Source of the DNA: Desulfovibrio sp.
GTDB taxonomy: Bacteria; Desulfobacterota; Desulfovibrionia; Desulfovibrionales; Desulfovibrionaceae
Length of the DNA stretch: 64,000 bases
Direction: 5' to 3'
Assembly: GCF_018379785.1 (NCBI RefSeq)
Contig: NZ_JAGZUV010000011.1
Location: 17,788-81,787, forward strand
The translations under genes were made by a program, and so were the position numbers. Positions 3,865 through 58,103 of this stretch are shown one piece after another (within the stretch, counting starts at the first letter, position 1; every line of letters starts with the position of its first letter). Under the pieces are notes generated by a model that saw only the letters and a program-made list of their open reading frames with translations, made no database searches and had not been told where the DNA came from.

Positions 3865-4012
3865 ATAATCCCTCTGTTTTTACTGCCTTTGCACTGTTGC
3901 CGGGCAGCGGCCGCAATCAGGTAAGAAAAAACTGCGTACTTGCTTTTTCCCGCCCGCTTCAGGATATTCAGGCATAGAAGCCCTCACAACCACAACCCGT
4001 AAGGAGAAAGAC

Positions 4013-4666: not shown

Positions 4667-4671
4667 CCGGA

Positions 4672-5529
4672 CTACTTCTGGCAGTGCGGACAGCAGACCG
4701 TGGCCCGGCCCGCCACGCGGATTTTTTGCAGCGGGCGGCCGCAACGGACGCAGGCCGCGCCGCCCCGGCCGTAGACCGCGAAACTGTTCTGAAACGCGCC
4801 CACGTCGCCGTTGGCGTCGCGGTAATCGCGGATGGAGCTGCCGCACTGGGCGATGGAACGGCGCAACACGTCCTTGAGGGCCGCCAGCAGGGAACGGCTC
4901 TGAGCCGGGCTGAGGCTGGAAGCCTTGCGGCGCGGATCCAGACCCGCCTGAAAGAGGGACTCGTCGGCGTAGATATTGCCGATGCCGGCAATGACCTTCT
5001 GGTCCAGCAACACGGCCTTGAGCGCCGCTCCCCGGCCTCGCAGCAGGGCCGCGAACTCCCGCTCGCCGATTTCCAGCGGCTCGGGCCCCAGCTCCCGCCA
5101 GAAATCCCAGGCCTGCAAAATCTCCGGCGTGGCGGCCAGCACCAAGCCGAAAGCCCGCGTGTCGTCGAAAAAGAGGCGGCGGCGACCGCCGCCGGGAGCG
5201 CGCAGATCAAAGATACAACGGGTATGGGGGCCGGGCGGCGTGCCCGGCGCGTAGGCCATCAGGCGGCCTGTCATGCGCAAATGCACGGCCAGCAGGTCCG
5301 GGACGGTCTCTTCCGGAGTGGGTCCGCCCTCCGGCGGGGCCAGATGCACCAGCAGCAGTTTGCCCCTGCGGCCCACGTCCGCGATACGGCGGCCCGCCAA
5401 AGAGGCCGGAGGAAGGCTCAGGGGATGCAGGCTGCCGGGCCGCAGAACTTCCGCCTTCTCAATCAGGCATTCCCGCACCTGGGGGCGCAGGGTGCGGGCT
5501 ACTGTTTCCACTTCGGGCAGTTCAGGCAC
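4672..5529 (-). CDS. mutM: formamidopyrimidine-DNA glycosylase
   Basis: 285 aa, starts MPELPEVETVARTL and ends with zinc finger ...RATVCCPHCQK. Confidence 0.9.
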   Translation of the reverse strand: MPELPEVETVARTLRPQVRECLIEKAEVLRPGSLHPLSLPPASLAGRRIADVGRRGKLLLVHLAPPEGGPTPEETVPDLLAVHLRMTGRLMAYAPGTPPGPHTRCIFDLRAPGGGRRRLFFDDTRAFGLVLAATPEILQAWDFWRELGPEPLEIGEREFAALLRGRGAALKAVLLDQKVIAGIGNIYADESLFQAGLDPRRKASSLSPAQSRSLLAALKDVLRRSIAQCGSSIRDYRDANGDVGAFQNSFAVYGRGGAACVRCGRPLQKIRVAGRATVCCPHCQK

Positions 5530-9601: not shown

Positions 9602-11161
9602 TTAGAAGCTGTACGCGAAGATCACCTGGGCTTTCCACATATCCTGCTTCTGGAAGGAGGATGCGCGGCTGCCGGCCTTTTTCCAGGTGTCGTTATCCAT
9701 GAAGTTGGCGATGTAGCCCAGTTCCAGATTGACGTCGAAGTTTTCGTACATCTGGTAGGAGTTGACCAGATTGAACTCCAGCAGGCCGTCATTGGTAGTC
9801 AGGTAGGGCGTCGAGGCGCTGTCGTCCCAGGTGGAAGTCCAGGCGTAGGCATTGCCCATGTACTTAACCATGGAAGTGGAGTTGGTGCCGCCCCAGTAGG
9901 CCACGCGGAAAGTGTGCTTGAGGTCATCCACAAAGCTCATATCGCGAATTTGCGCGCCGATGCCCCAAGTACCCGCATAATCGACGCCGAGGTCCTGCAT
10001 CATCCAGCCGTAGTTGCCGTCGCCCATAAAGGAGGTGAAGTTGCCCATGGGTACCAGGGAAGGCATGCGCTCGGAGCCGTTCTTGACGTTGCCGTCGTCG
10101 CCCGAACCGTACCAGCCGAAGATGCCGGGAACGCCCCAATCCATCTTGTATTCCACCAGGGCTTTGGCCAGCCAGCCCTGACGCTCAGTGCTGCCGCGCT
10201 TCAGATTGGTGACGTCATGCGCTCCCTTGTAGGCGTTGTAACGGCCCATGGCTTCCACATAGCCGTAATTGATGTCCACTTCGATGTTCAACGGATCCCA
10301 AGCCGTGACGGCGAATGGCAGCCCGGCCCAGAACATGGAACCGTAAGCCTTGCTGGTAGAGGAGCGACTATAGTCATTATCATCACGCATGAGCTTGCCA
10401 TACGGCATCAGGCTGTTGGTCAAATTGCCGTCACTGGTGGACCAATAAGGACTGTCGCCATTTTTCTTATAGTTATCTAGAGAATTTTGCCCCCGCATGC
10501 CGTACATGGCCCAGGGGGTGATCTCAAAGCCGTCCAGCTTCACGGGCACCATCAGAGCGAAAAGGTCGATATTGTCCAGATAGTTCTGCTCGTAGTGCCC
10601 GCTGTTGTGCAGATCACGTCCGCCAAAGTTGTCGTTGGCCGGACGCGCCCACAGGACGGTGAGTCCCACGTTTTCATTGAACTGGTAGGAGGCGGTGACG
10701 GCTGCGGCGTCGGTGTCCATAACGGCGGACCCGCCCGCCACATTGGGCAGGGTCACGCCCTGAATGCCCATGCGGAACTTCAGGTCGGTCTGGGGTACGA
10801 CCCAGTCGATATAGGCGCGCCTGACCTTGATCTGATTGGTCCCGTCAGCGCCCAGCGCGCCGCCGCTCTTTTCTTTGCCCCAGGTCTGGGTGCCGATTTC
10901 AAAGTAAACCGTGCCGGACAGGGCTTCGGAAGCCACGGCGTCCAACTGCAAACGCAGACGCTGGTTGGCCGCGAATTTGTCGTTGCTGTTGAACTTCTCC
11001 TTTTCCTGACCAACCTTGTGGGTCTTGCTGATCGGATTGGTGTCGCCCACGCCGAAGCCCATCAGCCACTGCCCCTTGGCCTTGAAGTCGATGGCCGACG
11101 CGCCCGTAGCCGCGCCCAGCAGCATGCCCGCTGTCAACAGCAATGTCAGAACCTTTTTCAT
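9602..11161 (-). CDS. outer-membrane porin (Desulfovibrio-type homotrimeric beta-barrel porin)
   Basis: 519 aa, signal peptide MKKVLTLLLTAGMLLGAATGASA, aromatic-rich alternating beta-strand pattern, C-terminal ...VIFAYSF. Confidence 0.75.
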   Translation of the reverse strand: MKKVLTLLLTAGMLLGAATGASAIDFKAKGQWLMGFGVGDTNPISKTHKVGQEKEKFNSNDKFAANQRLRLQLDAVASEALSGTVYFEIGTQTWGKEKSGGALGADGTNQIKVRRAYIDWVVPQTDLKFRMGIQGVTLPNVAGGSAVMDTDAAAVTASYQFNENVGLTVLWARPANDNFGGRDLHNSGHYEQNYLDNIDLFALMVPVKLDGFEITPWAMYGMRGQNSLDNYKKNGDSPYWSTSDGNLTNSLMPYGKLMRDDNDYSRSSTSKAYGSMFWAGLPFAVTAWDPLNIEVDINYGYVEAMGRYNAYKGAHDVTNLKRGSTERQGWLAKALVEYKMDWGVPGIFGWYGSGDDGNVKNGSERMPSLVPMGNFTSFMGDGNYGWMMQDLGVDYAGTWGIGAQIRDMSFVDDLKHTFRVAYWGGTNSTSMVKYMGNAYAWTSTWDDSASTPYLTTNDGLLEFNLVNSYQMYENFDVNLELGYIANFMDNDTWKKAGSRASSFQKQDMWKAQVIFAYSF

Positions 11162-30417: not shown

Positions 30418-33400
30418 TTAGGCGGCGATGATATCGCCGAGGGCGATGGAATTGTCCTCGCCGGTGCTGAGGGTGCCGAGCAGATTTACAGTGTCGCCGG
30501 CGTCAATCGTGCCGTCGGCCGAGGTGACCGAGAACACCCAGTAATTGCCGTCATCTGCGGCGGCGTCGGCGTTCTGGACAACCACGATGTTCTTGCCGGC
30601 GGTGAGGCCTGTAATGCCGTCAATACCGTAATGGGCATTCGTGGCGTCAATGACCTTGGCGGTGTCGAGCACTTTGCCGTCCAGTCCAAGGCCGGTGGCG
30701 TCGATTTTGTCGATGCCGGTCTGGAAGCCCAGGACGGTGTCGTCGTCGAACGCGCCGTTCACCACCAGGGTGTCGAAAGCGGTGTGGGACGAATTCACGT
30801 TCAGGGCGATGACGTCGTCGCCGGCAGTCAGATCAACAGTGTTCATGCTGGTGGTGCCGAGATCGGTACCGGCGACGTCAGCGGGAGTGCCCTTCACGAG
30901 GACGGTGTCGTCGCTGATATCTCCGCCCGCGGTGGCGCCGGTGATGGTGAAGGTATAGGTCCCGTCCGCGTTCTTCGCCCCGGCAACCGTCAGGCCGGTG
31001 TGGTCAGCCACCAATTCGGTCTGCATGGCGGTGGCCATGGCAGTTTCGTCGGCACCGCGCTCGAAAGTATAGGCTTTGCCGTTGTAAACGACCGTATAGT
31101 CGTCGGTAGCGGCTCCGGCACCAAAGTCCAGAGCAGCGGTGAGCGCCTGAACTTCAGGAGTGCCGCCAGTCCCCTGGGTCTGGATATCCAGCGCGCTGTC
31201 GACAGCCTCCACGCCGTTGACGGCCAGGTCGGAATCATTATTGCCGTTGGCATAAACGCCGTTAGCGCCGATCGTCACATTCGTGCCGGCGAAGTCCACA
31301 CTCAGATCAGTGGCAGCAAATGCACCGTCAACCAGGGATTCCACCAGCAGGGAGTGCCCCATGCCGTCCTTGGCCACCAGCAGAGCGCCCAAGGTCGGAT
31401 CCTCATTGATTGCCGCGATGATGGCGTGATTGACGTCATCCACGCTGATGCCTTTCTGGCCAGCGGCCACATCCAGCGTCACCTCGGAGGTGATGCCGTT
31501 GAATGTCACCGTAACGGTCACGGTGCCGGCAGTGGCCGAGGTGATTTCAAGGCCCACGGCATTAGTGGCCACGACTTCGTTCTGCAGGGGCTGCGCGCCG
31601 TCGGGACCGGCCTTTATGAAGGTTTCGGCCGTATTGTTGGCGCCGAACACGAAGACCGCATTCTGGTCGTGGGCGTTCTGCCCCACATAGACCTTGTCGT
31701 CGCCCACGCCGTCATTCACTTTCACCGCGCCGTTGCCCCAGAACCACACTTCGTCATTGCCCGCGCCCAGGTCGATGGACACATTGTTCAGGGCGATCTG
31801 GTTCAGTAGACGGCTGCCGGTAAGATTCTCAAAGGAGAAGTTCACCAGGTCGTTGCCGGCGTTGGTCTGGATGTCCAGCTTGAAGTCGCGGTCGGCGGCG
31901 ATGCCGGCGTTGACCTTCATGTTCAGGGTGTCGTCGTTTGTACCCAGATAGTAGCGGAAATCGCCGCTGGGAGCGTAGTTGCTGTACATGGTGTTCAGGC
32001 CGTCCACATCCGCCATATACTTGTCCAACGCTGTATCCGTGAGCTGCGCACCGATGTTCACCTTGCCGTTCATCTCGCTGGCATCGAAGACCTTGACGTT
32101 GGTCAGACCGTCGGTGCTCAGCAAGCGGGGCACGTTCATCCAGTGGGCGAGTTCCGCGTCGGTGGCGGGATTGACGCCCGTGTTGCCCAGAGCTTCAACA
32201 TCAAGCGGCGTGCCGATGAAAAGATTGCCGTCGTCGCCGGCGCCGTTCACCGCGCCGTTCTTCACCGTGACCAGACGCAGGGTGTCGTTGGTGGAGGACA
32301 GGCTGGACAGCCACGACCCCTTGTCCACGACCACGTCGAAGCGCTCCACGCCGCCGCGGCCCGCATTGGAGCCAATGACCAGATGGCCCGCTTCGCTGCC
32401 TAAGATGGAATCATCGGGCAGGCAGGGGCTGGCGTCATCCCACTGCACGCGGCCCACGTTGTCCAGCTCCACATTGGTCTGGATCAGGGGGCAGGTCGTC
32501 TGCGCGTCGTCGCTGAACGTGGCCGAAGTGGAGTTGGTCGGCGGAAGGCCGTTGGAGGCGATCCAGTTGCCGCCTTCCAGGGCCCCCTGATCGGAGGAGA
32601 TCACGATCTTGTTGCCCTGGACGGTTTCGCCTTTGTGATCGCCGATGCCCACCACGGCCGTGAACACATCGCCCTTGGTGACGGTCAGGCCCAGGCCGGA
32701 CAGTTCGGAATCGGCATCAATGGCGGCCTGCATCTGGGCGACCAGTTCGTCATAGGAGGGGGAATCGTCGGTGGTATGGTTGTACGCGCCGAAGTTCAGC
32801 GTGTACTCCTTGCCGTTGAGCGAGAACTTGAAGCCAGTGTATGGGTTGTCATACAGAGGATCAGCATGGCCGCCGTCAACCACGGGCAAAGCGCCCACCG
32901 TGTCGATGAGCTGCGCATACAGCGTGCCCGTGGTCTGGCTGTCCTCGCGCGCGAGGTGTTGCGCATCAAAGTAAACCGAGAAATCCACGCCGCCGGGATC
33001 AGTATTGGAGAAGCGGACCGTGGTTTCCGTGGATTTGTGGCGCACGTCCTCAACACTAAGGGAGCTGCGGCTGTTGTCCGAACCGAGGGTCAGCATCTGG
33101 CCATCGGCCAGGTGCACATTTTCGGCGTCGAAGTAGGCGTTGGTCAGATTGCCGCCCGTGCCGCCGGTAGCCTGCTGAACGTGGAAGAGAATGGTTTCCA
33201 CATTTTGGATTTCAGGCGAAATGACGTCGTCCGTCCTGCCGCTCTCGATGTCGGCATACAGGGTGTCGTGGCCGGCCTGGCCGTCAATGTAGTCACGGTC
33301 GTCAAGGGTTCCGACTTTGGCGTTGATATAGTCGTTGCCCGCAGTGCCCTGAATTTCGTCGTCGCCGGTGGTGAGCTGATAGGTGTTGCCGAGGGTGGCG

Positions 33401-33939
33401 GCGTTCACGGAGAGGCCCTCGGCCTTGCCGTACATTTCATAATGCTGGATGGGGTCAAGCCCGGCGTCCTGGAAGTCCTTCACCAGCATTTCCATGGTGT
33501 AGGCAGGGTCGCCCTTCTGCATCTCGGCCAACTTGGCATTCATGTACGCGGCAGTGTCAAAGCTCTGTGAAGGATTGTGGAAAACCCCCTTGGAGGCAAA
33601 GCTTTCGGCCCAGTACTGGTGGAAGTGCTCATACGGGCTCATGCCCGCCTGGTTCATGGCCACAAGCATGGAATTGGCATTCTGGCCGGTGATGTTGGTC
33701 CGTTCGTAGTAGTCCGCAGCCTTGTTGTACAGGTATTCGGAGCTGTCGAACCAGGAGCTGGCGCTCACGCCTTCAGCATTGCCGTAGTCCAGAAAATGCC
33801 TGTACAGGCCTTCCGCGTCCGTTGAATAGCCGGCGGCATCGAAAGCGGCTTTCAACTGCAGACTATCCCAACCTTCGCCCATCATCTGGAGCTTATTATT
33901 GAAATAGACATCTTTCTCAAACCAAGAAGGTACAGCCAT
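30418..33939 (-). CDS. giant secreted surface protein, paralog 1 (putative S-layer/array protein; T1SS substrate candidate)
   Basis: 1173 aa from MAVPSWFEKDVYFNNK...; three ~55-aa N-terminal repeats (WF..Y..NK..AG.S.YEHF..YG..EG), long Gly/Asp/Thr-rich beta-repeat body, no N-terminal signal peptide, C-terminus ...GFQTGIDKIDATGLGLDG... resembling T1SS C-terminal target domains; GGAGG RBS. Confidence 0.7.
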   Translation of the reverse strand: MAVPSWFEKDVYFNNKLQMMGEGWDSLQLKAAFDAAGYSTDAEGLYRHFLDYGNAEGVSASSWFDSSEYLYNKAADYYERTNITGQNANSMLVAMNQAGMSPYEHFHQYWAESFASKGVFHNPSQSFDTAAYMNAKLAEMQKGDPAYTMEMLVKDFQDAGLDPIQHYEMYGKAEGLSVNAATLGNTYQLTTGDDEIQGTAGNDYINAKVGTLDDRDYIDGQAGHDTLYADIESGRTDDVISPEIQNVETILFHVQQATGGTGGNLTNAYFDAENVHLADGQMLTLGSDNSRSSLSVEDVRHKSTETTVRFSNTDPGGVDFSVYFDAQHLAREDSQTTGTLYAQLIDTVGALPVVDGGHADPLYDNPYTGFKFSLNGKEYTLNFGAYNHTTDDSPSYDELVAQMQAAIDADSELSGLGLTVTKGDVFTAVVGIGDHKGETVQGNKIVISSDQGALEGGNWIASNGLPPTNSTSATFSDDAQTTCPLIQTNVELDNVGRVQWDDASPCLPDDSILGSEAGHLVIGSNAGRGGVERFDVVVDKGSWLSSLSSTNDTLRLVTVKNGAVNGAGDDGNLFIGTPLDVEALGNTGVNPATDAELAHWMNVPRLLSTDGLTNVKVFDASEMNGKVNIGAQLTDTALDKYMADVDGLNTMYSNYAPSGDFRYYLGTNDDTLNMKVNAGIAADRDFKLDIQTNAGNDLVNFSFENLTGSRLLNQIALNNVSIDLGAGNDEVWFWGNGAVKVNDGVGDDKVYVGQNAHDQNAVFVFGANNTAETFIKAGPDGAQPLQNEVVATNAVGLEITSATAGTVTVTVTFNGITSEVTLDVAAGQKGISVDDVNHAIIAAINEDPTLGALLVAKDGMGHSLLVESLVDGAFAATDLSVDFAGTNVTIGANGVYANGNNDSDLAVNGVEAVDSALDIQTQGTGGTPEVQALTAALDFGAGAATDDYTVVYNGKAYTFERGADETAMATAMQTELVADHTGLTVAGAKNADGTYTFTITGATAGGDISDDTVLVKGTPADVAGTDLGTTSMNTVDLTAGDDVIALNVNSSHTAFDTLVVNGAFDDDTVLGFQTGIDKIDATGLGLDGKVLDTAKVIDATNAHYGIDGITGLTAGKNIVVVQNADAAADDGNYWVFSVTSADGTIDAGDTVNLLGTLSTGEDNSIALGDIIAA

Positions 33940-34045
33940 GGATTCCTCCAAAATAAAGTTTTACTGTTTGCACCAGTTGCTGACGTGCTCCATAAAAAGA
34001 GGTCCCTTCACGCACCCTTCTCCACGCCTTCCAATCACGTGAAAA

Positions 34046-34075: not shown

Positions 34076-34279
34076 AAATTAGGAATTCTATTTTATAATC
34101 AAATTATATACTATTTTTTCATTTTTTATGAAAAAACAAATAGAGTTAAAAGAAATTATACATAATACAAAAGATGAGATATACAAATGAAAAAGACAGC
34201 CTACTTCACATTGCATATCAAATGAGATGACAGAGCATCTCGTTATATCCTCATGGAATAACGCATGCAGGAGAAAACT

Positions 34280-34924
34280 ATGGATATAGGCTACATCAGG
34301 GTCAGCTCATATGATCAACATACAGACAGACAACTGGATGGAGTCCATCTTGAAAAGATATATACGGATATGATCAGCGGCAAAGACACGAACAGACCTG
34401 AGTTGCAGAAGTGCCTTACGGCGTTGCAGCGTGGTGATACACTACATGTCCACAGCATCGACAGATTGACGAGAAATTTGCAGGATCTGCTTCTGCTGCT
34501 TTCGGAAATGGCCGAAAGGGGCGTCACAGTGCGGTTTCACAAAGAAAAACTGACTTTTTCAAGCGACAGCTCACCCTTTCAAAAACTGCACCTACAGATT
34601 ATCGGCGCTGTGGCTGAATTCGAACGGGCTTTCATCCGTGAGCGCCAGCGGGAAGGCATTGCCATTGCCAAGGCGAAGGGTAAATATAAAGGGCGCAAGC
34701 GTGCGCTTTCAGCGGAGCAACTGGAAGAAATTTCCCGGCGCATTGCAAGAGAGTCCGTGAGCCGCATCGCGGAGGAATATGGGGTGTCCCGCCAGACCAT
34801 CTACAGGTCGCTGCGCCAGAACGAGGAAGGCGGCATGCGCTCCGTCCGGGATTCCCGGAAAGGCTGTACGGGCCTGCGCCATGAAGCCCCGTGGCATGAT
34901 CGGGAGCGACGAACCCATACCTGA
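34280..34924 (+). CDS. serine recombinase (resolvase/DNA-invertase family)
   Basis: MDIGYIRVSSYDQHTDRQLD...GDTLHVHSIDRLTRNLQDLL... catalytic Ser motif and C-terminal HTH (GVSRQTIYR); AGGAG RBS; gene GC clearly lower than surroundings. Confidence 0.85.
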   Translation: MDIGYIRVSSYDQHTDRQLDGVHLEKIYTDMISGKDTNRPELQKCLTALQRGDTLHVHSIDRLTRNLQDLLLLLSEMAERGVTVRFHKEKLTFSSDSSPFQKLHLQIIGAVAEFERAFIRERQREGIAIAKAKGKYKGRKRALSAEQLEEISRRIARESVSRIAEEYGVSRQTIYRSLRQNEEGGMRSVRDSRKGCTGLRHEAPWHDRERRTHT

Positions 34925-35466: not shown

Positions 35467-37242
35467 ATGCAAGATTTTCTGCGCTCGTGCCGGTATTTCT
35501 TCGGATATGCCTTCTTCTTCAGCATGTTCGTCAATATTCTGCAGCTGACATTTTCCATCTACATGCTGCAGGTTTATGACAAAGTGCTGACCAGCTACAA
35601 TCTTTCGACACTGACGGTCATCACCATCGCCGCCGTCATCGCGCTGGTGGTCATGGCTTTGCTGGAGTGGATCCGTTCGCGCCTGCTGGTACGGGCCGGC
35701 ATTGAGTTCGACCACATGCTCAGCCGCGACGTGCTGAAGCTGAATCTGCAAAACGCGGGAGCGCCTGCCGGCAAACCTGCCGAGCAGAACGGCAATTTGC
35801 GCGACGTGCAGAGCCTGCGCAATTTTCTGGGCGGCAACGCGGTATTCGCGTTTTTCGACGTGCCCTGGATGCCCATCTATTTCGCCCTGATTTTCATCCT
35901 GCATCCTTCCCTGGGCATGGTGGCTGTGGGAGGCGGCCTGCTGGTCCTGATTCTGGGCGTCCTCACCGAGCGGCTGACCCGCAAGCGTCTGGAAGCGGCA
36001 AGCCATCTCAATGCCCATTCCTTCAATCTTACCGGCGCGGCCATGCGCAACGCCAGCATCGTGCGCTCCATGGGCATGATCGGCAATGTCACGGCGCGCT
36101 GGGGCAAGGTCAACGACCTGATCATCCGACTCCAGACGCGGGCCAGCCGCAGCGCGGGCCTGATCCACGCGGTCAGCAAATCCCTGCGGGTCGGCCTGCA
36201 AGTGCTGATCTACGCCGTGGGCGCGTATCTGACGGTCATGCACGAATCCACGGCCGGGGTCATGATCGCCGCGTCCATCGTCATGGGCCGCGCGCTCGCG
36301 CCCATTGATCAGGCCATGGGCAGCTACAAGCAGTCCCTGGAAGCCCGGGGAGCCTATGGCCGCCTGAAGACCCTGCTCGACGCCCCGCGCCCCCTCCCGG
36401 CCATGGACCTGCCGGAACCGCAGGGCGAGCTGACCGCCGAAAATCTCTATTTCGCCGCCGGGGGACGGCCCATCCTCAAGGGGATATCCTTCCGCATGCC
36501 CGCCGGGCAGTCCCTGGCCATTATCGGCCCCAGCGCTGCGGGCAAGTCCACCCTCTGCAAACTGCTGTTGAACATCTGGGAGCCCACCAGCGGCAAAGTG
36601 CGCATCGACCGCGCGGATATGGCTTCCTGGGATTCGGAAAAGCTCGGCCCTTTTCTCGGCTATCTGCCGCAGGATGTGGAACTGTTTTCCGGCAGCGTGG
36701 CGGAAAATATCGCCCGGCTCGGCGAGGTGGATTCCGCCAGGGTCATCAAGGCGGCCCGGATGGCGGGCGTGCATGAAATGATTCTGGCCCTGCCCAAAGG
36801 CTACGACACCCAGATTGGCGACCAGGGCGCGGCCCTTTCCGGCGGACAGCGCCAGCGCATCGGTCTGGCGCGCGCCCTGTACGGCGATCCGCGCGTCATC
36901 GTGCTGGACGAGCCCAACTCCAATCTGGACGAAGAGGGCGAGGCCTCGCTGGCGCAGGCCGTGCTGCATCTCAAGCAACAGCACACCACTCTGATTCTGG
37001 TAACCCACAAGCCCAATATCCTTTCCATTGTGGACAACATCATGATGGTGCAGGACGGGCAGATCGCCCTGTGCGGGGCGCGCCAGGAAGTGCTGGCCAA
37101 GCTGGCGGAGCTCCAGAAACAGCAGCGCGAGGAAGCGGCCAGAGCCAGACTGTTGCGGGAGGCGCTGGAAAGGCGCAAGGCCGTCTCGCCGGAAAATCCC
37201 GATGAACCGCAAAGCGGCGACGGGGAGCCTGAACATGCGTAA
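35467..37242 (+). CDS. type I secretion system ABC transporter (permease/ATPase, HlyB/PrtD family, no C39 peptidase domain)
   Basis: 591 aa, 6 TM then Walker A GPSAAGKST, signature LSGGQRQRIGLARAL, Walker B VIVLDEPNSNLD. Confidence 0.9.
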   Translation: MQDFLRSCRYFFGYAFFFSMFVNILQLTFSIYMLQVYDKVLTSYNLSTLTVITIAAVIALVVMALLEWIRSRLLVRAGIEFDHMLSRDVLKLNLQNAGAPAGKPAEQNGNLRDVQSLRNFLGGNAVFAFFDVPWMPIYFALIFILHPSLGMVAVGGGLLVLILGVLTERLTRKRLEAASHLNAHSFNLTGAAMRNASIVRSMGMIGNVTARWGKVNDLIIRLQTRASRSAGLIHAVSKSLRVGLQVLIYAVGAYLTVMHESTAGVMIAASIVMGRALAPIDQAMGSYKQSLEARGAYGRLKTLLDAPRPLPAMDLPEPQGELTAENLYFAAGGRPILKGISFRMPAGQSLAIIGPSAAGKSTLCKLLLNIWEPTSGKVRIDRADMASWDSEKLGPFLGYLPQDVELFSGSVAENIARLGEVDSARVIKAARMAGVHEMILALPKGYDTQIGDQGAALSGGQRQRIGLARALYGDPRVIVLDEPNSNLDEEGEASLAQAVLHLKQQHTTLILVTHKPNILSIVDNIMMVQDGQIALCGARQEVLAKLAELQKQQREEAARARLLREALERRKAVSPENPDEPQSGDGEPEHA

Positions 37243-38620
37243 GCAACTGAGCAGGGCCCTGGCCGTCATTGAAACCAGCGTCATCAAGCCCATCGTCAGC
37301 GCCGCGGAAAAACGCCAGGCCGCCAAGGGCGAAAATGTGGAAGACCCCCGCCGCATCATCCGCCAGGGACTTCTGGTGGTGGGTCTTTTCTTCGGGGCGC
37401 TGGGAATCTGGTCGGTTTTCGGCCACATCAGCGGGGCCGTGGTGGCGCCGGGCAAAATCAAGATCGAAACGGAACGCAAAACCGTACAGCATCTTGAAGG
37501 CGGCATTGTGGACGCCATTCTGGTGCGCGAAGGCGAGGAAGTGGCGGCGGGCCAGCCTCTCATCCTGTTGGAATCGGTGCAGATCGACGCCAGCGCCAGC
37601 ATGCTGCAAAAGCAGCTTGTGGCCCAGCTGGCCGCCGGAATCCGGTTGGCCGCCGAAAAGGATCTCAAAGAGGAACTGCACTGGCCCGACGATCTGCGCC
37701 GCATGGCCGAAGAGCGCCACAGCCTCGATGTGCTGGACAACGAGGCCAAAATTTTCGCCGCCCGGCGGGAGGCTCTCAACGCGCAGGTTTCCCTGCTGAA
37801 TACCCAGCTTGCACAGCTGGACGCCCAGGTGGCCGGTTTTGACGATCAGGTCAAGGCCGAGCAGGCCATTATCGGCACGCTTAATGAAGAACTGCGCGCC
37901 AAGCGGCAGCTCTACAATGAGCGCTATCTGGAAAAATCGCAGATTCTGGAGCTGGAACGCACCCTGGCCAGCCATCAGGGCAACCGGGGACGCCTCAAAC
38001 AGTCCATCGCCGAGGCCAAACAGCGGGCCGCCGAGCTGCATCTGCGCATCGAAGACGTGAAAGTGCGCTTTGTGGAAGAAGCCACCAGCTCCCTCGGCAA
38101 GCTTGAAAACGACATCATCCAGACCCGCGAGCGCCTCCGCCCGCTCAAAGACGCAAAAAGGCGCCTGCAGATCGTGGCTCCGGTGGGCGGGCGCGTGGTG
38201 GATCTCAAGGTGCATTCCAAGGGCGGAGTCGTGCGTCCGGGCGAGCCGCTCATGGACATCGTGCCCCACGACAATCCCCTGATTGTGGAAACCCATGTGC
38301 CGGTCAACAAGATCACGGAAGTCCACATCGGACAGGATGCCCTGGTGCAGCTCGACGCCTTTGACACGCGCCTTACCCCGCACATGCCCGCCAAAGTCAC
38401 CTACATCTCGGCTGACCGTCTGGAAGAGCGCACCGGCGCGGGCGTGATGCCCTATTACCTTTGTTATGTGGAAATCGATCCCAGAGCCCTGAAAGACGCC
38501 AAGCTCTATCTTTCGCCGGGCATGCCCGCCACGGTTTTCATCACCACCCAACAGCGCACGGTCCTTTATTATATGATGGAGCCGCTGCTCAAAAACTGGG
38601 ACAGAGCGTTGAGGGAGTGA
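37235..38620 (+). CDS. type I secretion membrane fusion protein (HlyD family)
   Basis: MRKQLSRALAVIE..., single N-terminal TM, long coiled-coil, C-terminal beta domain; start overlaps ABC stop. Confidence 0.85.
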   Translation: MRKQLSRALAVIETSVIKPIVSAAEKRQAAKGENVEDPRRIIRQGLLVVGLFFGALGIWSVFGHISGAVVAPGKIKIETERKTVQHLEGGIVDAILVREGEEVAAGQPLILLESVQIDASASMLQKQLVAQLAAGIRLAAEKDLKEELHWPDDLRRMAEERHSLDVLDNEAKIFAARREALNAQVSLLNTQLAQLDAQVAGFDDQVKAEQAIIGTLNEELRAKRQLYNERYLEKSQILELERTLASHQGNRGRLKQSIAEAKQRAAELHLRIEDVKVRFVEEATSSLGKLENDIIQTRERLRPLKDAKRRLQIVAPVGGRVVDLKVHSKGGVVRPGEPLMDIVPHDNPLIVETHVPVNKITEVHIGQDALVQLDAFDTRLTPHMPAKVTYISADRLEERTGAGVMPYYLCYVEIDPRALKDAKLYLSPGMPATVFITTQQRTVLYYMMEPLLKNWDRALRE

Positions 38621-38622
38621 GC

Positions 38623-39558
38623 ATGCGCCGGATTCTTGCAGTTTTCCTCCTGTGGGCGGCAACGGTTATTCCCCAGACCTCACAGGCCGCCGTTGCCGCC
38701 CTTTCCGGCCATGCCCCGTTGCGGGCGGCCAGCCTGTATACGGGCGGGGAGCACGCCGGCGGCGGGGAACAGCGGGTGGAACTCTATCTGCTGGACGGCA
38801 ACTTTTTCGTCCTGCGCCAGATTGCCGCGCCCAGAGGCAAAAAAGCCGTTACGCGGGACATGACCGGCTTCTGGCGGCAGGTGGACGACGGATTTCCGCA
38901 CAGCCTGGCGCTGAAAAAATCCCCGTTCCGCAAGCCGTCCTTCAGCGTCATGGGCAGGCTGGATCGTATTGCGGGCCGCGCGGCACTGACCGACAGCGCC
39001 ACGGGGCGGGTGTTCGCGCCCGCTGAAGGCGAGGCGCTGGCGGCTCTGCCCGGGAAGGATTCCCTCTTTGTGGATGCGGTGATCCTGCCCGCAAAAAACG
39101 GCTGTGCCGTCCAGCGCATCCGGAGTTTTTCCACCCGTTTTCCGTCACAGGCCGGGTCCGCCCCGACAGACGGGGACTTTGCCGCCAGAGTGGCGGGCGA
39201 AGTCTGGCTTCTACCTTCCCTGCCGGGTCTGCCCGCCGCCTCCTGCGTTTTCAGCGAGCGGGGCAAAGGGCAGGGCGCACTGGAAGTGACCGGGCCGGGC
39301 CTGCGGCTGACGGCGGACTATGTCCTGCGCGGGCCGGGCCTGACCTTCTCCGTCAGGAAGGAGGACGCCCGCATGCTGGAAGCCTGCGGGGCGGAGGTTC
39401 TGCCGCGCATGCTGGCCTCCGTGCGTTCATGGTCGCTGGAAGGCGGGGCGCTGACGCTCACCTCCGCCGACGGACAGAGCTTTCTGCTGGAAAAAGCCGC
39501 GCCGGATCGCCGGGCCGGAAGCGGACGCGCCGCCGCGCCCAAAGGATATAAGAGATGA
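38623..39558 (+). CDS. hypothetical secreted/periplasmic protein encoded inside the T1SS operon
   Basis: 311 aa, signal peptide MRRILAVFLLWAATVIPQTSQAA; translationally coupled to MFP (3-nt gap) and TolC (4-nt overlap). Confidence 0.6.
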   Translation: MRRILAVFLLWAATVIPQTSQAAVAALSGHAPLRAASLYTGGEHAGGGEQRVELYLLDGNFFVLRQIAAPRGKKAVTRDMTGFWRQVDDGFPHSLALKKSPFRKPSFSVMGRLDRIAGRAALTDSATGRVFAPAEGEALAALPGKDSLFVDAVILPAKNGCAVQRIRSFSTRFPSQAGSAPTDGDFAARVAGEVWLLPSLPGLPAASCVFSERGKGQGALEVTGPGLRLTADYVLRGPGLTFSVRKEDARMLEACGAEVLPRMLASVRSWSLEGGALTLTSADGQSFLLEKAAPDRRAGSGRAAAPKGYKR

Positions 39559-40892
39559 ACACAGGTTGCCGTCTTTTTTGGTTCCGTCTTCTTCTGCTGC
39601 TCTGCCTCGCGCTGCCGCTCCGGGAACCGGATGCTCCGCGCGCCGCGGAAATCTTCACCATGGAGCAGGCCGTGGCCCGTGCCATGCAGGCCAATCCCGG
39701 CGTGGAGGCGAAAATGCTGCTGCTGGAACAGGCCCGGCTGAACGTGGGCGTGGCCCAGAGTTATTTCTGGCCGCGCGTTTCCCTGGTGGGCACCAGCAGC
39801 CGCGTCCAGAACTACGAGGAAGTGCAGACCTACAACAGCGACAACCTCACCAGCGACAACTGGTCCAAAGGTCTGCGGGCCTCGCTGTCCCTGTTCGCCG
39901 GTTTCGCCCATCTGAACAATCTGCAGAAATCCCGCATCGCGGTGGAGGTGGAAAAAGCCCGCCACCGGCAGGCCCGTCTGGAACTGGGCAGCAATGTGCA
40001 GCTTCAGTTTCTGCAACTGCTCAAATGCCGCGAGGATCTCAAAAGCGCGGAAGAAGCCGTGGCCCGCATTGAAACCCAGCTCAAGGCCGCAGAGGCCTTC
40101 GTCAAAGTGGGCATGGCCCCCTATGTCAATGTGCTCCAGAACCGAACCGAGCTTTCCAGCGCCCGGCAGCAGGTCATCCGCGTCAACAACGACATCCGCA
40201 ACGCGGAAGTGCAGCTCAACAGATATCTGGGATTTTCTCCGGACCGCCCCGTGCGCTATGCCGGCAATCTCAAAAATTTCTCCAGCACCGTCGGATACAC
40301 GGAAGAGGAAGCCGTCGCAGCGGCCATACGGCAGCGGCCTGACCTGACCATGGCCCGGAAGTCGGTGGAGGTGGCCTACAAGGACATGCACATCGCCATG
40401 GGACAGTACCTGCCCCGCGTGGACGCCACCTACGACAATATGAGCTCCAGCAAGGAATACGACGACAAACGCTATCAGGGCTACACCCGCAACTACTGGG
40501 CTGCAGGGCTGAATTTCTCCTGGGAAATCTTTTCCGGCGGCGAAACAACCTTTTCCACCCTGGCTGACCGCAAAAAGGCCCAATCCCTGCAAAAAGACTA
40601 CGAAGACGCCATGTCCGGCGCGCGCGCCGACGTGATCCGCTCACTGCTGGACATCAAGGCCGCCAGGGAACTTATCGCTGCCTCCCGCCAAGGCATGGAC
40701 GCAGCCCGCGAAAGCTACGCCATGGCCAACAAACGCTACATGACCAATACCGGCACCATCACCGAACTGCTGGACGCCCAGCTCAAGCTGACCCAGGCCG
40801 AAAACGACGCCAGCCGCGCCCTGACCGAATACCACAGCGCGCGTGTCCGCTTCTTTTACCATATCGGGCGCGAGAACCCAGGACTGAGGTAA
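39555..40892 (+). CDS. TolC-family outer-membrane efflux protein (T1SS outer membrane component)
   Basis: 445 aa, signal peptide, two-repeat TolC architecture (..SYFWPRVSLVGTSS.. / ..QYLPRVDATYD..). Confidence 0.85.
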   Translation: MNTGCRLFWFRLLLLLCLALPLREPDAPRAAEIFTMEQAVARAMQANPGVEAKMLLLEQARLNVGVAQSYFWPRVSLVGTSSRVQNYEEVQTYNSDNLTSDNWSKGLRASLSLFAGFAHLNNLQKSRIAVEVEKARHRQARLELGSNVQLQFLQLLKCREDLKSAEEAVARIETQLKAAEAFVKVGMAPYVNVLQNRTELSSARQQVIRVNNDIRNAEVQLNRYLGFSPDRPVRYAGNLKNFSSTVGYTEEEAVAAAIRQRPDLTMARKSVEVAYKDMHIAMGQYLPRVDATYDNMSSSKEYDDKRYQGYTRNYWAAGLNFSWEIFSGGETTFSTLADRKKAQSLQKDYEDAMSGARADVIRSLLDIKAARELIAASRQGMDAARESYAMANKRYMTNTGTITELLDAQLKLTQAENDASRALTEYHSARVRFFYHIGRENPGLR

Positions 40893-50518: not shown

Positions 50519-53500
50519 ATGGCTGTTGAAATTCCTACTTGGTTTGAGGAAAAAAATTATCTCAATAATAAAGCGGTGCAGTTGAACGCCACCAAGTTCA
50601 ACGACAAAACCGATTGGACTGCGGATTCGGCGTTGGCCGCCATTGAAGCCGCGGGCATGAGCGCCTACGAGCATTTCGTCGCCTACGGCAATGTCGAAAA
50701 CATCAGCCCCAATCCCATGTTCAACGTGGCGGAATACCTCGCGGCCAAGGCGGCACAGCTCAACAGCGACCCTGACGAGCCAAAATCCGACTGGACCGAG
50801 GCCGACGTACTGGCGGCATTCAACGACGCCGGTCTGACTGCTTGGGATCATTACACACAATACGGCATGTATGAAGGGATCAACCCCTCCAATCAATTTG
50901 ACGCCAGCGCCTACTTCACAGCCAAGCTGGCGCAGCTTCAGGCTGCCGAGCCGGATAAGGGCTGGACAGAAGAATCCATGCTGGACGCCTTTAAGGAAGC
51001 GGGTCTCAACCCCTTGGAACATTATGCCCAGTACGGCAAGGATGAAGGCCTTTCCGTTCCCCCGGTGCCGTCCGACGAACGGGTCGTCACGGATTTTGAT
51101 CCCTACACTCCTTCCAATCCGGGCGAAACTTTCACCCTGACCACCGGCACCGACCACATTACGGGCACGGCCAACGACGACGTGGTCAACGGCGTGGCCT
51201 CCTCCCTGACCGCCGACCGCACCCTGAACAGCGAAGACGTCATCGACGGCGCGGAAGGCAACGACACTCTGAATGTGGCCATGCAGGGCAATTTCTCCGG
51301 CTTCACCACCGGCTCCATGACCAACGTGGAAAAAGTGGTGCTGACCAACGAAGGCAACATCGCCCGCAGCTTCTCGGCCAAGGGCATTGACGGTGTGAAT
51401 ACCTGGACCCTGAACGACACGGGCGCGGCCGTCAACCTTACCGACCTTTCCGCCGCGGGCGCCACCGTCAATGTGCAGGGTCTCAAGGCGGGCCCGACCA
51501 GCATCGGTTTTACTGCTGACGCCGTAAAGGGCGACAACGACTCGCTGACCCTGGGCCTCAACAATGTGGGCACCGCCAAAGACGGCGACACAGCCGCCAA
51601 GCATGTGGCCATTACCGCCAACGGCATTGAAAATCTGGCCGTGAAGGCCACGGACGACAACTATGTGGATCTGAGCGCCGCCGCTTCTAAAACCGTAACC
51701 GTCTCCGGCTCCGGCAATCTGGATGTCAACAATGTAGCGGCGGGTATGACCAGCTTCGACACTTCGGCCCTCAGCGGCAATGTGACGGCTGATCTGCACG
51801 CAGCCACCGGGCTGGCGATCGTCAAGGGAGGTTCCGGCGACGACACCATTACGGTAACCAACCTTGCCGCCAACGCCGTTATTGAAGGCGGAGCCGGCAA
51901 TGACAGCCTGATCCTGCAAGGCGTCACCAGTACTCTGCAACCCACCATGTCCGGTTTTGAGAATATTACGGCTGATGGCGGCACGCTCACCCTTTCCGGC
52001 AAAAACATGTCCGATTTCAATTCTCTGACCGTGAAGAATGGTGCGCAGGTGACTTTGGCCAATATGGACGCCTCTGCCTTTACCGTCACCGCGTCGGGTT
52101 CTACGGCTGGTTCCGTTTTGTTGAGCGACGCCACCGCGCTTACCTACAATACGGTAAGCAGCAAGACCGACAAAACCTCGGACAGCATCAGCACCACAGT
52201 GACCGCCTCCAAGGCCACCTCGGCCACGGTCAACGTGGGCGAATACACCGAGGTGAACGGGACGCTGAACTTTGGCGCGGCTGTGGATGTGGCCGTGAAT
52301 GTGGCCAGCGGTCTGGGCAGCGACGGCAAGACCGAAATGACCTCTTTTGGCGGTACCCTGACCGCGAACAAAGCCCAGAGTTTTACCGTTAATGCGGAAG
52401 GTCTGCTGGAGGTTTCCACCTTCAATGTGGACGCGGCCAGTTCCGTGCTGGTGGATGCCGCCCAGGGCAGCACGGGCGTGGTAAAAATTCAGGCGAGCAA
52501 GGCCACTGACGTGAGCATTACCGCCGGCTCGGCTATGGCTATCACCGGCAGCTCTTTCTCCAGCGCCCAGAACGTGACCCTGGCCGCGAACAAAGGGCAT
52601 CTCTCCGGCGGCGTGGCACTGGACGCCGTCAACCAGCTCACCCTTTCCGGCGCGGATGCGGCCTCGCAGATGACGCTGGGTGTTCTGGGCTCTTCCACAC
52701 AGGAATACGGCATCACAGTGGACGCCAGCGGCCTGAAAGGCGGGTTGGTACTGGGTAATACTGACGCCGGAACCGGTGATGTGGCCTTGAATCTCGTCGA
52801 CGTGACGGGTGCCGCCGTTGTCGGTACGGTGGACGGCAACAATGTGACCATCCACGCCGCCCAGCTCGGCACGACCACTCTGGGCGCCATTACCGCTACC
52901 GGAGATGTGAACATTGACGCCATGGGCGTGTTGGGCGGCAATGCGGCAGCCGCTGCCTTTACAGCAGGCGCTATTGTTGCCGACAAGGCCATCACGGTGA
53001 ACTTCGACGGCAGCAGCGATATGGCCTTCGGCGCGCTGACTGCCGACACCGTGAACCTGGACGCATCCGGCTATCTGGGTGCCATCACTAACAGCAACGG
53101 CGCCGTCGTTGATGCAGCCATCGGCATGATTACGGCGGATACGGTCGTCATCAAGGGTTCAGAGATCGGCGCGAACACCTTTGGTTCCGCAGCCAATACG
53201 GACAACTTCATAACGGCCGATACCCTTACCTACACCGGCGGCCTGGATGTGGATACGGTATACCTTACCGGCAAGTCCGGCCCGGATATGAATGTGCGCC
53301 TCGACACCGGCGCGGGCAATGACATTGCGAGCCTTACCGCCATTAGCTCCACGACCAAAATCACGGTCACCGGCGATATGGGCGGCGACAACGGCGACGC
53401 GATTAAGGTGGACGGCTCTGCTTCCACCAACGAGATCAACATCAATCTCAGCGGCCTGACCGGTTACAGCACGAGCGACCTCTCCGCAAAAGCTGCCGGC

Positions 53501-53923
53501 AGTGCTTTGGTTGGTGGATCTGGTGTAGACTCTCTGACTGTGGGTGGTGCAACTGCTGCTATCACTAAGGGCGTATTGGAATATAGCATGACCGGCGGTG
53601 CCGGAATTGATACGTTCAACGTAGTTGCGGCTGTTACCACTGGGATTAATCATGTTACGATTACCGACTATGAAAGCGGCATCGACATTCTGAAAGGATT
53701 TTCCGGTGAGGATAGCTATAGCAATGCTAATGACGCCGCTGCTGCCCTGCAAACCTTCTTGGGTGGTACGATTTCAGCAAGCGACATTCAGTACACGGTA
53801 GGTAACGAAGCAATTGTTTATAATGGCAATACCTATCTGCTGAGTGTCGATACGGCGGCTGATGTGACAAGCATAGTCGAACTTCACGGAGTTCAAGACC
53901 TGGATGCGTCGATTAGCGCTTAA
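50519..53923 (+). CDS. giant secreted surface protein, paralog 2 (putative S-layer/array protein; T1SS substrate candidate)
   Basis: 1134 aa, MAVEIPTWFEEKNYLNNK...; same triple N-terminal repeat module as paralog 1, Gly/Thr/Asp-rich body, no signal peptide, C-terminal ...DYESGIDILKGF... T1SS-like target domain; GGAGG RBS. Confidence 0.7.
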   Translation: MAVEIPTWFEEKNYLNNKAVQLNATKFNDKTDWTADSALAAIEAAGMSAYEHFVAYGNVENISPNPMFNVAEYLAAKAAQLNSDPDEPKSDWTEADVLAAFNDAGLTAWDHYTQYGMYEGINPSNQFDASAYFTAKLAQLQAAEPDKGWTEESMLDAFKEAGLNPLEHYAQYGKDEGLSVPPVPSDERVVTDFDPYTPSNPGETFTLTTGTDHITGTANDDVVNGVASSLTADRTLNSEDVIDGAEGNDTLNVAMQGNFSGFTTGSMTNVEKVVLTNEGNIARSFSAKGIDGVNTWTLNDTGAAVNLTDLSAAGATVNVQGLKAGPTSIGFTADAVKGDNDSLTLGLNNVGTAKDGDTAAKHVAITANGIENLAVKATDDNYVDLSAAASKTVTVSGSGNLDVNNVAAGMTSFDTSALSGNVTADLHAATGLAIVKGGSGDDTITVTNLAANAVIEGGAGNDSLILQGVTSTLQPTMSGFENITADGGTLTLSGKNMSDFNSLTVKNGAQVTLANMDASAFTVTASGSTAGSVLLSDATALTYNTVSSKTDKTSDSISTTVTASKATSATVNVGEYTEVNGTLNFGAAVDVAVNVASGLGSDGKTEMTSFGGTLTANKAQSFTVNAEGLLEVSTFNVDAASSVLVDAAQGSTGVVKIQASKATDVSITAGSAMAITGSSFSSAQNVTLAANKGHLSGGVALDAVNQLTLSGADAASQMTLGVLGSSTQEYGITVDASGLKGGLVLGNTDAGTGDVALNLVDVTGAAVVGTVDGNNVTIHAAQLGTTTLGAITATGDVNIDAMGVLGGNAAAAAFTAGAIVADKAITVNFDGSSDMAFGALTADTVNLDASGYLGAITNSNGAVVDAAIGMITADTVVIKGSEIGANTFGSAANTDNFITADTLTYTGGLDVDTVYLTGKSGPDMNVRLDTGAGNDIASLTAISSTTKITVTGDMGGDNGDAIKVDGSASTNEININLSGLTGYSTSDLSAKAAGSALVGGSGVDSLTVGGATAAITKGVLEYSMTGGAGIDTFNVVAAVTTGINHVTITDYESGIDILKGFSGEDSYSNANDAAAALQTFLGGTISASDIQYTVGNEAIVYNGNTYLLSVDTAADVTSIVELHGVQDLDASISA

Positions 53924-55405: not shown

Positions 55406-55683
55406 GGCGGCAGTGCCCACATTACCCTCTCTCACTTACCAATACGGCGCAAGCCCTCCGCACATGGGACTGTACCCGGAAACCTGAATTCCGCACTCCC
55501 GGCCATCGCGCAAGCCATGATGAAGCAACACAAAACAGGCTTCGCCGTGAAACTCGTTCAAAAAAGCCGCACCCGGCAGCGAACAGACAGCAACCCGAAA
55601 AGTAAAAGCCCCTCATGCAACCAAGGAAACAGGAGCATGCGGGGTTTTATGAACGGCTTGTGTATCAAGCGGGTATGGCTTCT

Positions 55684-55766
55684 GGTGCGAGAGGGGGGAT
55701 TTGAACCCCCATACCTAGGGTGCTGGATTCTAAGTCCAGTGCGTCTACCAGTTCCGCCACTCTCGC
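55684..55766 (-). tRNA. tRNA-Leu (anticodon TAG)
   Basis: Reverse complement GCGAGAGTGGCGGAACTGGTAGACGCACTGGACTTAGAATCCAG...GGGGGTTCAAATCCCCCCTCTCGCACCA: 7-bp acceptor stem, long variable arm, anticodon loop CTTAGAA, encoded CCA. Confidence 0.85.
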
Positions 55767-56255: not shown

Positions 56256-57314
56256 TCAGCGCAACAGCAAGGCCTTGCCGTCGGTCCTCGGTGGAAGCAC
56301 TTCGCCCACCTCCCGGGCCAGGTCGCCACCGCTCTCCAGCATGTCCCGCACCGGGCCCAGCAAGTCCGGAGGCACGGCCAGCAGCAAACCGCCTGAAGTC
56401 TGGGCGTCAAAAGTCACGCTCTCAAGAGCCTCATCCACGCCCGGCTCCACCAGGGTGGAACAGGCCCAGTGCTTGCGGTTCAGATGGCTGCCCGCCGGAA
56501 TCAGTCCGTCACGCGCGTATTCCAGCACACGGGGCAAAAGGGGCAGAGCCGCCGTATCCAGAGCCACACAGGCATTTGAGGCCAGGGCCATTTCCAGGGC
56601 ATGGCCGCCCAGGCCGAAACCGGTGATATCCGTGGCGGCGGGCAGATGGAACGCACGGATGACCGCGCCGCCCACCTTGTTCAGTCGTCCGCAGCAGCGG
56701 ATCAGTTCGGCCTCGCTTTCCGCCGCGCCCTCCCAGCGGGCCTTGACCGCCGTGGCAAGAATGCCGGTGCCCAGCGCCTTGGTCAGCAGGAGGCACTGTC
56801 CCGGCCTGAGCCCGTCGTTCACCGCAATATGCGCCGGATCGATAATGCCCGTCACGGCCAGACCATATTTCAATTCGTCGTCCTGCACGGTATGGCCGCC
56901 GGCCAGCACGGCTCCGGCCTCCAGCAGGGCGTCCTGGCCGCCGCGCAAAATGTTGGTCAGAGCTTGCTCGGGATCATCTTCCGCCAACGCTTGGGGAAAA
57001 CAGGCCACGTTCATGGCGCACCAGGGTTCGCCCCCAAGAGCGTAGACATCGGACAAAGCATTGGCCGCCGCGATGCGGCCAAAGGCGAACGCGTCATTGA
57101 CGATGGGCGCGAGGATGTCCACGGTCTGCACCAGGGCCTTGCCCGGCGGCACGGAGAGCACCACGGCGTCCTCATTGCGAGCGCGGCCAGCCAGCACTCT
57201 GGCTTCCAATTCGGGGGGAGTTACGGGCGCAAGGCCGCGCAAAAGCCGCTCCAGGGCCCCTGGAGCCAACTTGGCCGCTCAGCCTGGGGCGCGGGCTTTT
57301 TCCAACAGTTTCAT
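56256..57314 (-). CDS. selD: selenophosphate synthetase (selenide, water dikinase), selenocysteine-containing: in-frame TGA at 57279..57281
   Basis: ORF track starts at TTG 57269, but reading upstream in frame gives MKLLEKARAPG-U-AAKLAPGALERLL..., aligning with the SelD motif GAG(C/U)GCK..P..LE.IL; body ...FGRIAAANALSDVYALGG...TDITGFGLGGHALEMA is canonical SelD; stable hairpin GCUCCAGGggcCCUGGAGC begins ~13 nt after the TGA (SECIS-like). Confidence 0.75.
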
Positions 57315-57590
57315 CTTCAAATTTCCGTTAGAGCATTTCACAATGAACAATCAGCCACGTTCACTCCAAGGATGCGGCTTGTTCAAGCTACGGGAAATTT
57401 TACACTCTGCCAAGAAGGAGGCTGCAACACCGCTTTCCCGGTCCGCACGCCCTGCCCCCCCGAGCGGCCGGTCCCGCACGCCGCGCGCCTACAGCGCAAC
57501 CCATGAAAACAGGCAAAAAGCCCTGCCTGAAAGAGCATAAAAAAGGGAGTCCGAAGACTCCCCTTTTGCAAAAGCTGCTGTGCTTGCGCG

Positions 57591-58103
57591 CTATTCGGCG
57601 GCGCCTGCTTCCTGCGCGGTCCCTTCCTCAGCCTTAGGCTTGCGGGTGCGCTTGGGTTTGGCGGCCGCATCCCCGGCCGGAGTGGCGTCAGCGGCTTTGA
57701 CCGCCTTCTTGTCCTTGCCCGCCTTGGCGTCCGCAACCGGCTCGGCCGCACGGGACAACTCGATAACAGCCATGGGGGCATTGTCGCCCTTACGCGGCAT
57801 GGCCAGTTTGAGCACGCGGGTGTAGCCGCCCGGCACGCCGGCAAACAGCGGGCCGATTTCATCAAAAAGACGCTTGACCAGGGCGTGGTCGTTGAGCACC
57901 CGGTAGGCCAGACGGCGAGAGTGCAGATCGTTGCGCTTGGCCAGCGTGATCAGGGGTTCCACCACCCGGCGCAATTCCTTAGCCTTCATCTCCGTGGTGC
58001 GGATTTTGCCGTGGATCAGAAGCGCCTTGGCGAGATTGTGCAACAGGGCCTTACGGTGCGCGGGCGTGCGCGAGAGTTTCCTGCCGGAATTGCTATGCCT
58101 CAT
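57591..58103 (-). CDS. rplQ: 50S ribosomal protein L17 (with Ala/Lys-rich C-terminal extension)
   Basis: [56 protein letters not shown]... Confidence 0.9.

Follow-up and report, generated by a model that had tools for sequence, protein, structure and literature searches.

A Desulfovibrio selD gene with an in-frame UGA at the catalytic position, a covarying downstream hairpin, and a probable selenocysteine residue

The selD gene and its neighborhood

The window analyzed here, a 64,000-nucleotide stretch of the Desulfovibrio sp. contig NZ_JAGZUV010000011.1, contains on its − strand, at positions 56256..57314, the selD gene of a Desulfovibrio-like bacterium, which encodes selenide, water dikinase (selenophosphate synthetase). 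The full coding sequence consists of 352 codons, including an in-frame TGA at codon 12 (57279..57281), the proposed selenocysteine (Sec) codon, and ends with a terminal TGA at 56258-56256. Cys was written for the in-frame TGA to make the 352-residue product searchable. With this query, the selD equivalog model TIGR00476 scored 307.5 bits, against a cutoff of 125, with 309 of the 311 model positions covered. The two-domain architecture of the AIR-synthase-related proteins is present as well, with Pfam matches to AIRS (PF00586, 80.8 bits, residues 48-158) and AIRS_C (PF02769, 45.1 bits, residues 170-341). Among proteins of known structure, the query matched SelD from Escherichia coli (3u0o, E = 6e-52, residues 3-349) and from Aquifex aeolicus (2yye, E = 2e-43, residues 2-321). 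Residues D49, D66, N85, D89, and D229 of the window protein align with D51, D68, N87, D91, and D227 of E. coli SelD, which we take to be ATP and metal ligands, and are invariant or nearly so in a 26-sequence alignment of relatives.

Two sets of related sequences were used for comparison. A scan of one genome per species provided 80 homologous loci that range from Desulfovibrionaceae to Acidobacteriota, Chloroflexota, Bacillota, and others, the closest being that of Desulfovibrio sp. Dsv1, with up to 87% identity. Exact-protein look-ups added 12 contigs from this species or a close one (L081-L088 and L091-L094), each from a separate sample; at the nucleotide level, they match the window at 94-98% over selD and at 96.6-98.2% over the locus around it.

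The − strand gene order around selD is secY, map, rpsM, rpsK (from syntenic contigs), rpsD, rpoA, rplQ (57591-58103), a terminator-like hairpin, selD, and tRNA-Leu (55683..55766). The terminator-like hairpin (57540..57567, − strand), which follows rplQ and consists of a 12-bp stem and then a T run, separates the ribosomal-protein/rpoA operon from selD. The order from secY to tRNA-Leu is also kept in relatives, and tRNA-Leu, on the same strand downstream of selD, is a conserved neighbor that takes the same place in loci L001, L004, L005, L009, and L015. One of the same- or near-species contigs (L092, positions 3204-4942) carries a phage-type integrase and a Bro-N/ANT gene immediately 3′ of selD, in place of the glycosyltransferase found there in the window and in other strains; the tRNA-Leu gene beside selD may be an integration site.

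Elsewhere, the window encodes the housekeeping genes comEC, ffh, guaBA, tatC, hisB, and the lon-clpX-clpP-tig group, along with a type I secretion set and a cluster for polysaccharide biosynthesis. Three long ORFs, at 30418-33951 (−), 50519-53923 (+), and 9602-11161 (−), encoding 1,177, 1,134, and 519 aa, have coding-like GC3 values of 0.79, 0.70, and 0.79, respectively, and matched no Pfam family at E < 1e-3. The 1,177-aa ORF is located beside SapC and the type I secretion set (ABC, HlyD, and OEP, 35467-40892), and the 1,134-aa ORF lies inside the polysaccharide cluster and is called, likewise without a Pfam match, in L081, L093, and L094. Between the 1,177-aa ORF and the genes for type I secretion lies a lone serine recombinase gene (resolvase plus HTH_7) at 34265-34924 (+), possibly a sign of a segment that is mobile or invertible.

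No tRNA-Sec was detected by ARAGORN in the 64-kb window, and Pfam scans of ∼50 ORFs in it, which took in opposite-strand alternatives for the ORFs without a match, revealed no SelA, SelB, SelU, YqeB, or YqeC. Such absence is to be expected, as the sel genes are scattered over the chromosome in Desulfovibrio and its relatives (PMC4730141). Similarly, no Sec machinery was found within 3 kb of selD in the Desulfovibrionaceae loci. Adjacency to selD, of either the Sec or the Cys type, is seen only in phyla other than that of the window. Thus, tRNA-Sec adjoins selD in L045 (2663-2759), L053 (2826-2920), and L057 (4042-4139), and a selB-like gene (∼640 aa, with the motif GTAGHIDHGK) does so in L032, L036, L044-L046, L053, and L064. 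These arrangements come from Acidobacteriota, Vicinamibacterales, Eisenbacteria, and some uncultured “delta proteobacteria.”

Reading frame and the in-frame TGA

The 5′ end of selD reads ATG AAA CTG TTG GAA AAA GCC CGC GCC CCA GGC TGA, that is, MKLLEKARAPG-*, and the codons after the in-frame TGA are GCG GCC AAG TTG (57269) GCT CCA GGG GCC CTG GAG CGG, translated as AAKL and so on; from there, the frame is open to the stop at 56258-56256. The coordinates and the codon reading given for this gene in the earlier note, with the ATG at 57314-57312 and the TGA at 57281-57279, proved exact.

Assignment of the start to the ATG at 57312..57314 (− strand) relies on comparison with relatives. Any 5′ extension of the frame is bounded by an in-frame stop at 57353-57351. 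In close relatives, the ATG and the codons for MK/RLLEKARAAG are kept. Across the 11 codons 5′ of the TGA, the amino acids are retained and the changes are mostly synonymous, with third-position variants such as AAA/AAG, CTG/CTT/TTG, GCC/GCA/GCG, and GGC/GGT, while no similarity among relatives is seen directly 5′ of the ATG. The mostly synonymous changes and the end of similarity at the ATG indicate that the N-terminal extension is translated in frame and starts at 57314. A GGAA at 57323..57326 (− strand), 8 nt 5′ of the ATG, was read from the sequence as a putative Shine-Dalgarno-like site; GGAG or GGA is found at a comparable distance from the ATG in L001-L007.

Codon 10 of selD (57285-57287, − strand), two residues before the proposed Sec, is CCA (Pro) in the window and GCG or GCA (Ala) in all 12 same- or near-species contigs, so that the window reads A-P-G-U and these contigs A-A-G-U. 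Pro at this position is also found in the distant SelD proteins of L016 and L050 and is therefore probably tolerated.

The loop of E. coli SelD that carries Cys17 and Lys20 is involved in the formation of selenophosphate from selenide and ATP. Residue 12 of the window protein aligns with Cys17 in the E. coli motif GAGC17GCK20 and with the Cys of SSGCAAK in Aquifex, and Lys15 (AAG, 57270..57272, − strand) corresponds to Lys20 in the 3u0o alignment. The N-terminal loop P-G-U12-A-A-K15 thus matches the pattern G-[Cys/Sec]-x-x-Lys, and it exists only if the TGA is read through. The proposal that the TGA falls at the catalytic Cys/Sec position of SelD is borne out by these alignments.

At the position of codon 12, 75 of the 80 homologous loci share the TGA, and the remaining five (L012, L037, L053, L057, and L080) have TGC or TGT; the peptide context is G-*-A-[AGS]-K in the former and G-C-A-[AS]-K in the latter. 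Columns 10-11 of the nucleotide alignment (AA, within the AAG codon of Lys15) are invariant in 76/76 Sec-type sequences. The same TGA, followed by an identical hairpin, is present in each of the 12 same- or near-species contigs. Between the window and L091-L094, ∼3% of the aligned nucleotides differ across the locus, and yet the 313 residues from Val40 on are identical. All differences inside that stretch must therefore be synonymous, which indicates strong purifying selection. The segment 57284-57235 shows zero differences among strains, and the intergenic region 5′ of the gene is dense with them.

The recurrence of the TGA in 12 independent contigs and in 75 of 80 homologs excludes a sequencing error or a private pseudogene, among the grounds on which the earlier note had allowed that its reading might be refuted. 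Taken with its alignment to the catalytic Cys, this conservation suggests that the in-frame TGA of selD very probably encodes selenocysteine. Global reassignment of TGA is ruled out, since this codon terminates 10 of the 30 family-supported genes in the window, selD itself included.

A conserved hairpin downstream of the TGA

Minimum-energy folding and covariation both point to a hairpin at 57248..57266 (− strand), with 8 bp and a GGC loop, as a candidate for the upper stem-loop of a SECIS element. Its arms, at 57266-57259 and 57255-57248, form the structure GCUCCAGG-GGC-CCUGGAGC, with the loop at 57258-57256. The stem starts 12 nt and the loop 20 nt after the UGA. The earlier note had reported a hairpin downstream of the TGA, which is indeed present, at a distance of about 13 nt, which is corrected here to 12. 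[quoted passage not shown]

The folding energy of the hairpin did not separate it from dinucleotide shuffles (z = 0.17 and 0.02), a test that is uninformative because the region is GC rich (61% GC), so comparative data were relied on instead. An ungapped alignment of 48 nt from the UGA was made for 76 Sec-type genes, with numbering from the U of UGA. In the helix formed by nt 16-23 and 27-34, 74.2% of the cells are paired, compared to 22-50% after displacement of the partners by 1-3 columns. Covariation scored 0.267 versus 0.156 in shuffles, and none of the 500 shuffles reached the observed covariation or pairing.

Both sides change in 6 of the 8 pairs of the helix across the 76 sequences. At pair 17-33, C-G is found in 24 sequences and G-C in 24, which in protein terms amounts to Ala...Glu versus Gly...Asp. 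Because the hairpin overlaps the conserved peptide APGALE/GPGDLE, part of its conservation is due to protein-coding constraint. Pair 18-32 (U-A in 42 sequences, G-C in 7, and C-G in 3) joins a wobble position with a second codon position, and column 18 tracks its partner, a pattern for which protein constraint alone would hardly account. In the loop, G occupies column 24 in 55 of the 76 sequences and column 25 in 60. Of the 8 pairs, all can form in the window and 5.9 on average in the Sec-type genes, compared to only 3 or 4 in register in the five distant Cys-type loci. Judged from these alignments, the helix is kept by compensatory changes and tied to Sec rather than to Cys. An extended lower stem (nt 8-14 and 37-43) is about half paired, in mostly invariant columns, and is weakly supported; a structure displaced by one column, in effect a negative control, showed 40% pairing, which 259 of 500 shuffles equaled or exceeded.

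A syntenic relative with the order rpoA-rplQ-selD (L089; GCA_025997355.1, BNUM01000002.1), 73% identical, has a genuine TGT Cys codon (3034-3036) in place of the TGA, as does L090. L089 retains a weakened hairpin, GCUUCAGA-GGA-UCUGGAAC, with 7 of the 8 pairs, including one G-U. It probably represents a recent Sec-to-Cys conversion with a remnant SECIS, a type of event that has been described previously (PMC1794560).

A search of the whole window against Rfam at gathering thresholds returned the tRNA-Leu as its sole match, with none at the hairpin, and a search of 57100-57450 at E values up to 10 gave only subthreshold chance matches (an enterovirus CRE, an HTLV frameshift site, and a snoRNA). 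These negative results carry little weight, as Rfam has no model for the hairpin element. On the + strand, a terminator-like hairpin with a T run (57276-57291) overlaps the Sec codon, in all likelihood by chance, given the GC-rich sequence.

Decoding, alternative readings, and database annotation

Given where the UGA lies, how the codons before and after it are constrained, and how the hairpin covaries, it is highly probable that the selD product is itself a selenoprotein, with UGA12 and the SECIS hairpin used in standard bacterial Sec decoding. By analogy with the established bacterial pathway, from which SelB binding and Sec insertion at UGA12 are inferred, translation would begin at the ATG at 57314, and the ribosome would reach the UGA at codon 12. 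The 8-bp hairpin with its G-rich loop, 12 nt 3′ of the UGA, would serve as the bacterial SECIS. SelB, together with GTP and Sec-tRNA(Sec), would bind the apical part of this hairpin as the ribosome comes near and would deliver selenocysteine to UGA12 in competition with release factor 2, and translation would then proceed to the stop at 56258-56256. The full-length SelD would bear Sec12 and Lys15 in a flexible N-terminal G-U-x-x-K catalytic loop.

Three other explanations of the in-frame TGA retain only a small share of the probability between them, and each is contradicted by comparative data. If the TGA were a real stop, SelD would be made from the TTG at 57269 or the GTG at 57197, and the 11 upstream codons would be an untranslated leader or encode a tiny leader peptide. 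Such a reading agrees with the mechanical ORF call and with every public call (313-337 aa, GKI13317.1 among them), all of which start 3′ of the TGA. However, the G-[C/U]-x-x-K loop, whose counterpart in E. coli SelD holds the catalytic Cys17 and Lys20, would be absent from a product begun at either codon, and the 11 upstream codons show the evolution of protein-coding sequence in this same frame, with conservation ending at the ATG. Further, the five distant homologs and the close syntenic L089, with its TGT, read through this position with a Cys codon, and the alternative starts are not conserved, the public calls varying from 299 to 338 aa. Termination at codon 12 is accordingly very improbable.

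Equally improbable is the reading of the UGA by a standard tRNA, a near-cognate Cys or Trp species, with the hairpin merely slowing termination. Such read-through would be favored by the lack of Sec machinery in the 64-kb window and by the fact that Trp or Cys tRNAs can suppress UGA at a low level when selenium is limiting. Against it stand the location of the UGA exactly at the Cys/Sec catalytic position and the covarying hairpin at SECIS spacing, lost in the distant Cys-type genes, which is typical of SelB-dependent recoding. In addition, tRNA-Sec or selB adjoins selD in several other homologous loci, and Desulfovibrio species are documented Sec users (PMC1794560, PMC4730141). The remaining explanation, a sequencing error in the TGA or decay of selD into a pseudogene, has the in-frame stop itself as its sole support and is refuted by the comparative data, the same TGA being found in 12 assemblies from separate samples and in 75 of the 80 homologs, and the 313 downstream codons being protein-identical to those of L091-L094 despite the ∼3% nucleotide divergence of the surrounding locus; of the three, it is the one with the faintest chance of being true.

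No bacterial selenoproteins are more widespread than SelD and FdhA. Read as a Sec-encoding gene, selD of the window is an unremarkable example of a bacterial selenoprotein gene with its SECIS, of a kind already known for the genus, and nothing here goes beyond the established biology of Desulfovibrio and many other anaerobes. SelD has been listed among the selenoproteins of D. vulgaris and D. desulfuricans (Zhang et al. 2006, PMC1794560, Table 3), and Sec-containing SelD was reported there from other Deltaproteobacteria as well. The window gene is like those of D. vulgaris and D. desulfuricans in gene family, position of the Sec UGA, and genus-level lineage, and nothing of substance sets it apart from the Sec-SelDs of Desulfovibrio: it comes from another species, common in metagenome assemblies, shows Pro in place of Ala at the second residue before Sec, and has been deposited in truncated form. 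The D. diazotrophicus ortholog (P0038), 77% identical to the window protein, is already labeled “Selenide,water dikinase @ selenocysteine-containing” in a RAST annotation.

SelD of Aquifex aeolicus (PDB 2yye and 2zod), which presumably contains Sec naturally and was crystallized with Cys in its place, has the segment SSG-[U/C]-AAK, resembling APG-U-AAK of the window; it belongs to a distant phylum and lies outside the 80-locus set used for the SECIS comparison. E. coli SelD (3u0o) shares the fold and the catalytic loop, with Cys17 and Lys20 aligned to U12 and K15, but uses Cys (TGC) instead of Sec and hence needs neither recoding nor a SECIS. The bSECISearch consensus for bacterial SECIS elements is a stem-loop directly 3′ of the UGA (PMC10778597). 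Like the prototype in E. coli fdhF, the candidate element in the window is an intra-ORF stem-loop, here with 20-nt spacing and a G-rich loop; it differs in having a 3-nt GGC loop and a perfect 8-bp stem with no bulged U.

The earlier note described a selenophosphate synthetase that itself needs Sec as a known autoregulatory arrangement. The existence of bacterial Sec-containing SelD is well documented (PMC1794560), but autoregulation is a hypothesis with no established mechanism; the title of Guimaraes et al. 1996 (listed in PMC8659212) poses Sec-dependent autoregulation of SelD as a question. A feedback switch is conceivable because SelD would need its own product, selenophosphate and then Sec-tRNA(Sec), to pass codon 12. 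It is a speculative and rather unlikely idea that the UGA and the SECIS act as a selenium-sensing positive-feedback switch that sets SelD levels in this gut Desulfovibrio. Bootstrapping of such a switch could proceed via low-level Sec-independent read-through, yielding a Cys- or Trp-containing enzyme. It is likewise speculation that the switch might be tuned by the strain-specific replacement of Ala by Pro two residues ahead of Sec.

As the earlier note had anticipated, standard ORF calling misses the N terminus of this SelD: the mechanical call and all public calls start 3′ of the TGA. The six-frame ORF does begin, as had been noted, with the TTG at 57267..57269 (− strand), giving 337 aa; an exact look-up of this TTG-start product found none on record, and several public homologs begin with MAPGALE (P0003 and P0046). 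An exact-protein look-up identified a public annotation that starts at the GTG at 57195..57197 (− strand), namely, the 313-aa GKI13317.1 (P0121), corresponding to 56256-57197 of the window. This protein is encoded on 154 contigs, the longest of 3,403,882 bp, and a selD matching it is carried by BQOJ01000001.1 (“Desulfovibrionaceae bacterium,” 3.40 Mb, assembly GCA_022835475.1). Gene calls in related contigs are all truncated, at 313, 322, 328, or 337 aa. Among the thousands of close homologs retrieved by protein search, almost all are 299-338 aa long and lack the N terminus, which is the usual outcome when gene callers meet an in-frame TGA.

The catalytic Sec/Lys loop is missing from GKI13317.1, as it is from the automatic calls seen in related metagenome contigs. 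The practical gain from the present analysis is a corrected selD annotation in which the catalytic N terminus is restored; selenoproteome or pathway surveys that use the truncated calls would misjudge SelD. With its Sec-type selD, the organism is also likely to be a selenocysteine user, which matters for reading its hydrogenases and formate dehydrogenases. Two of the public homologs have unusual lengths: P0027 (534 aa) fuses RpoA to the C-terminal part of SelD, and P0095 (403 aa) is a frameshifted SelD. Both are artifacts of short metagenome contigs and do not represent real domain architectures.
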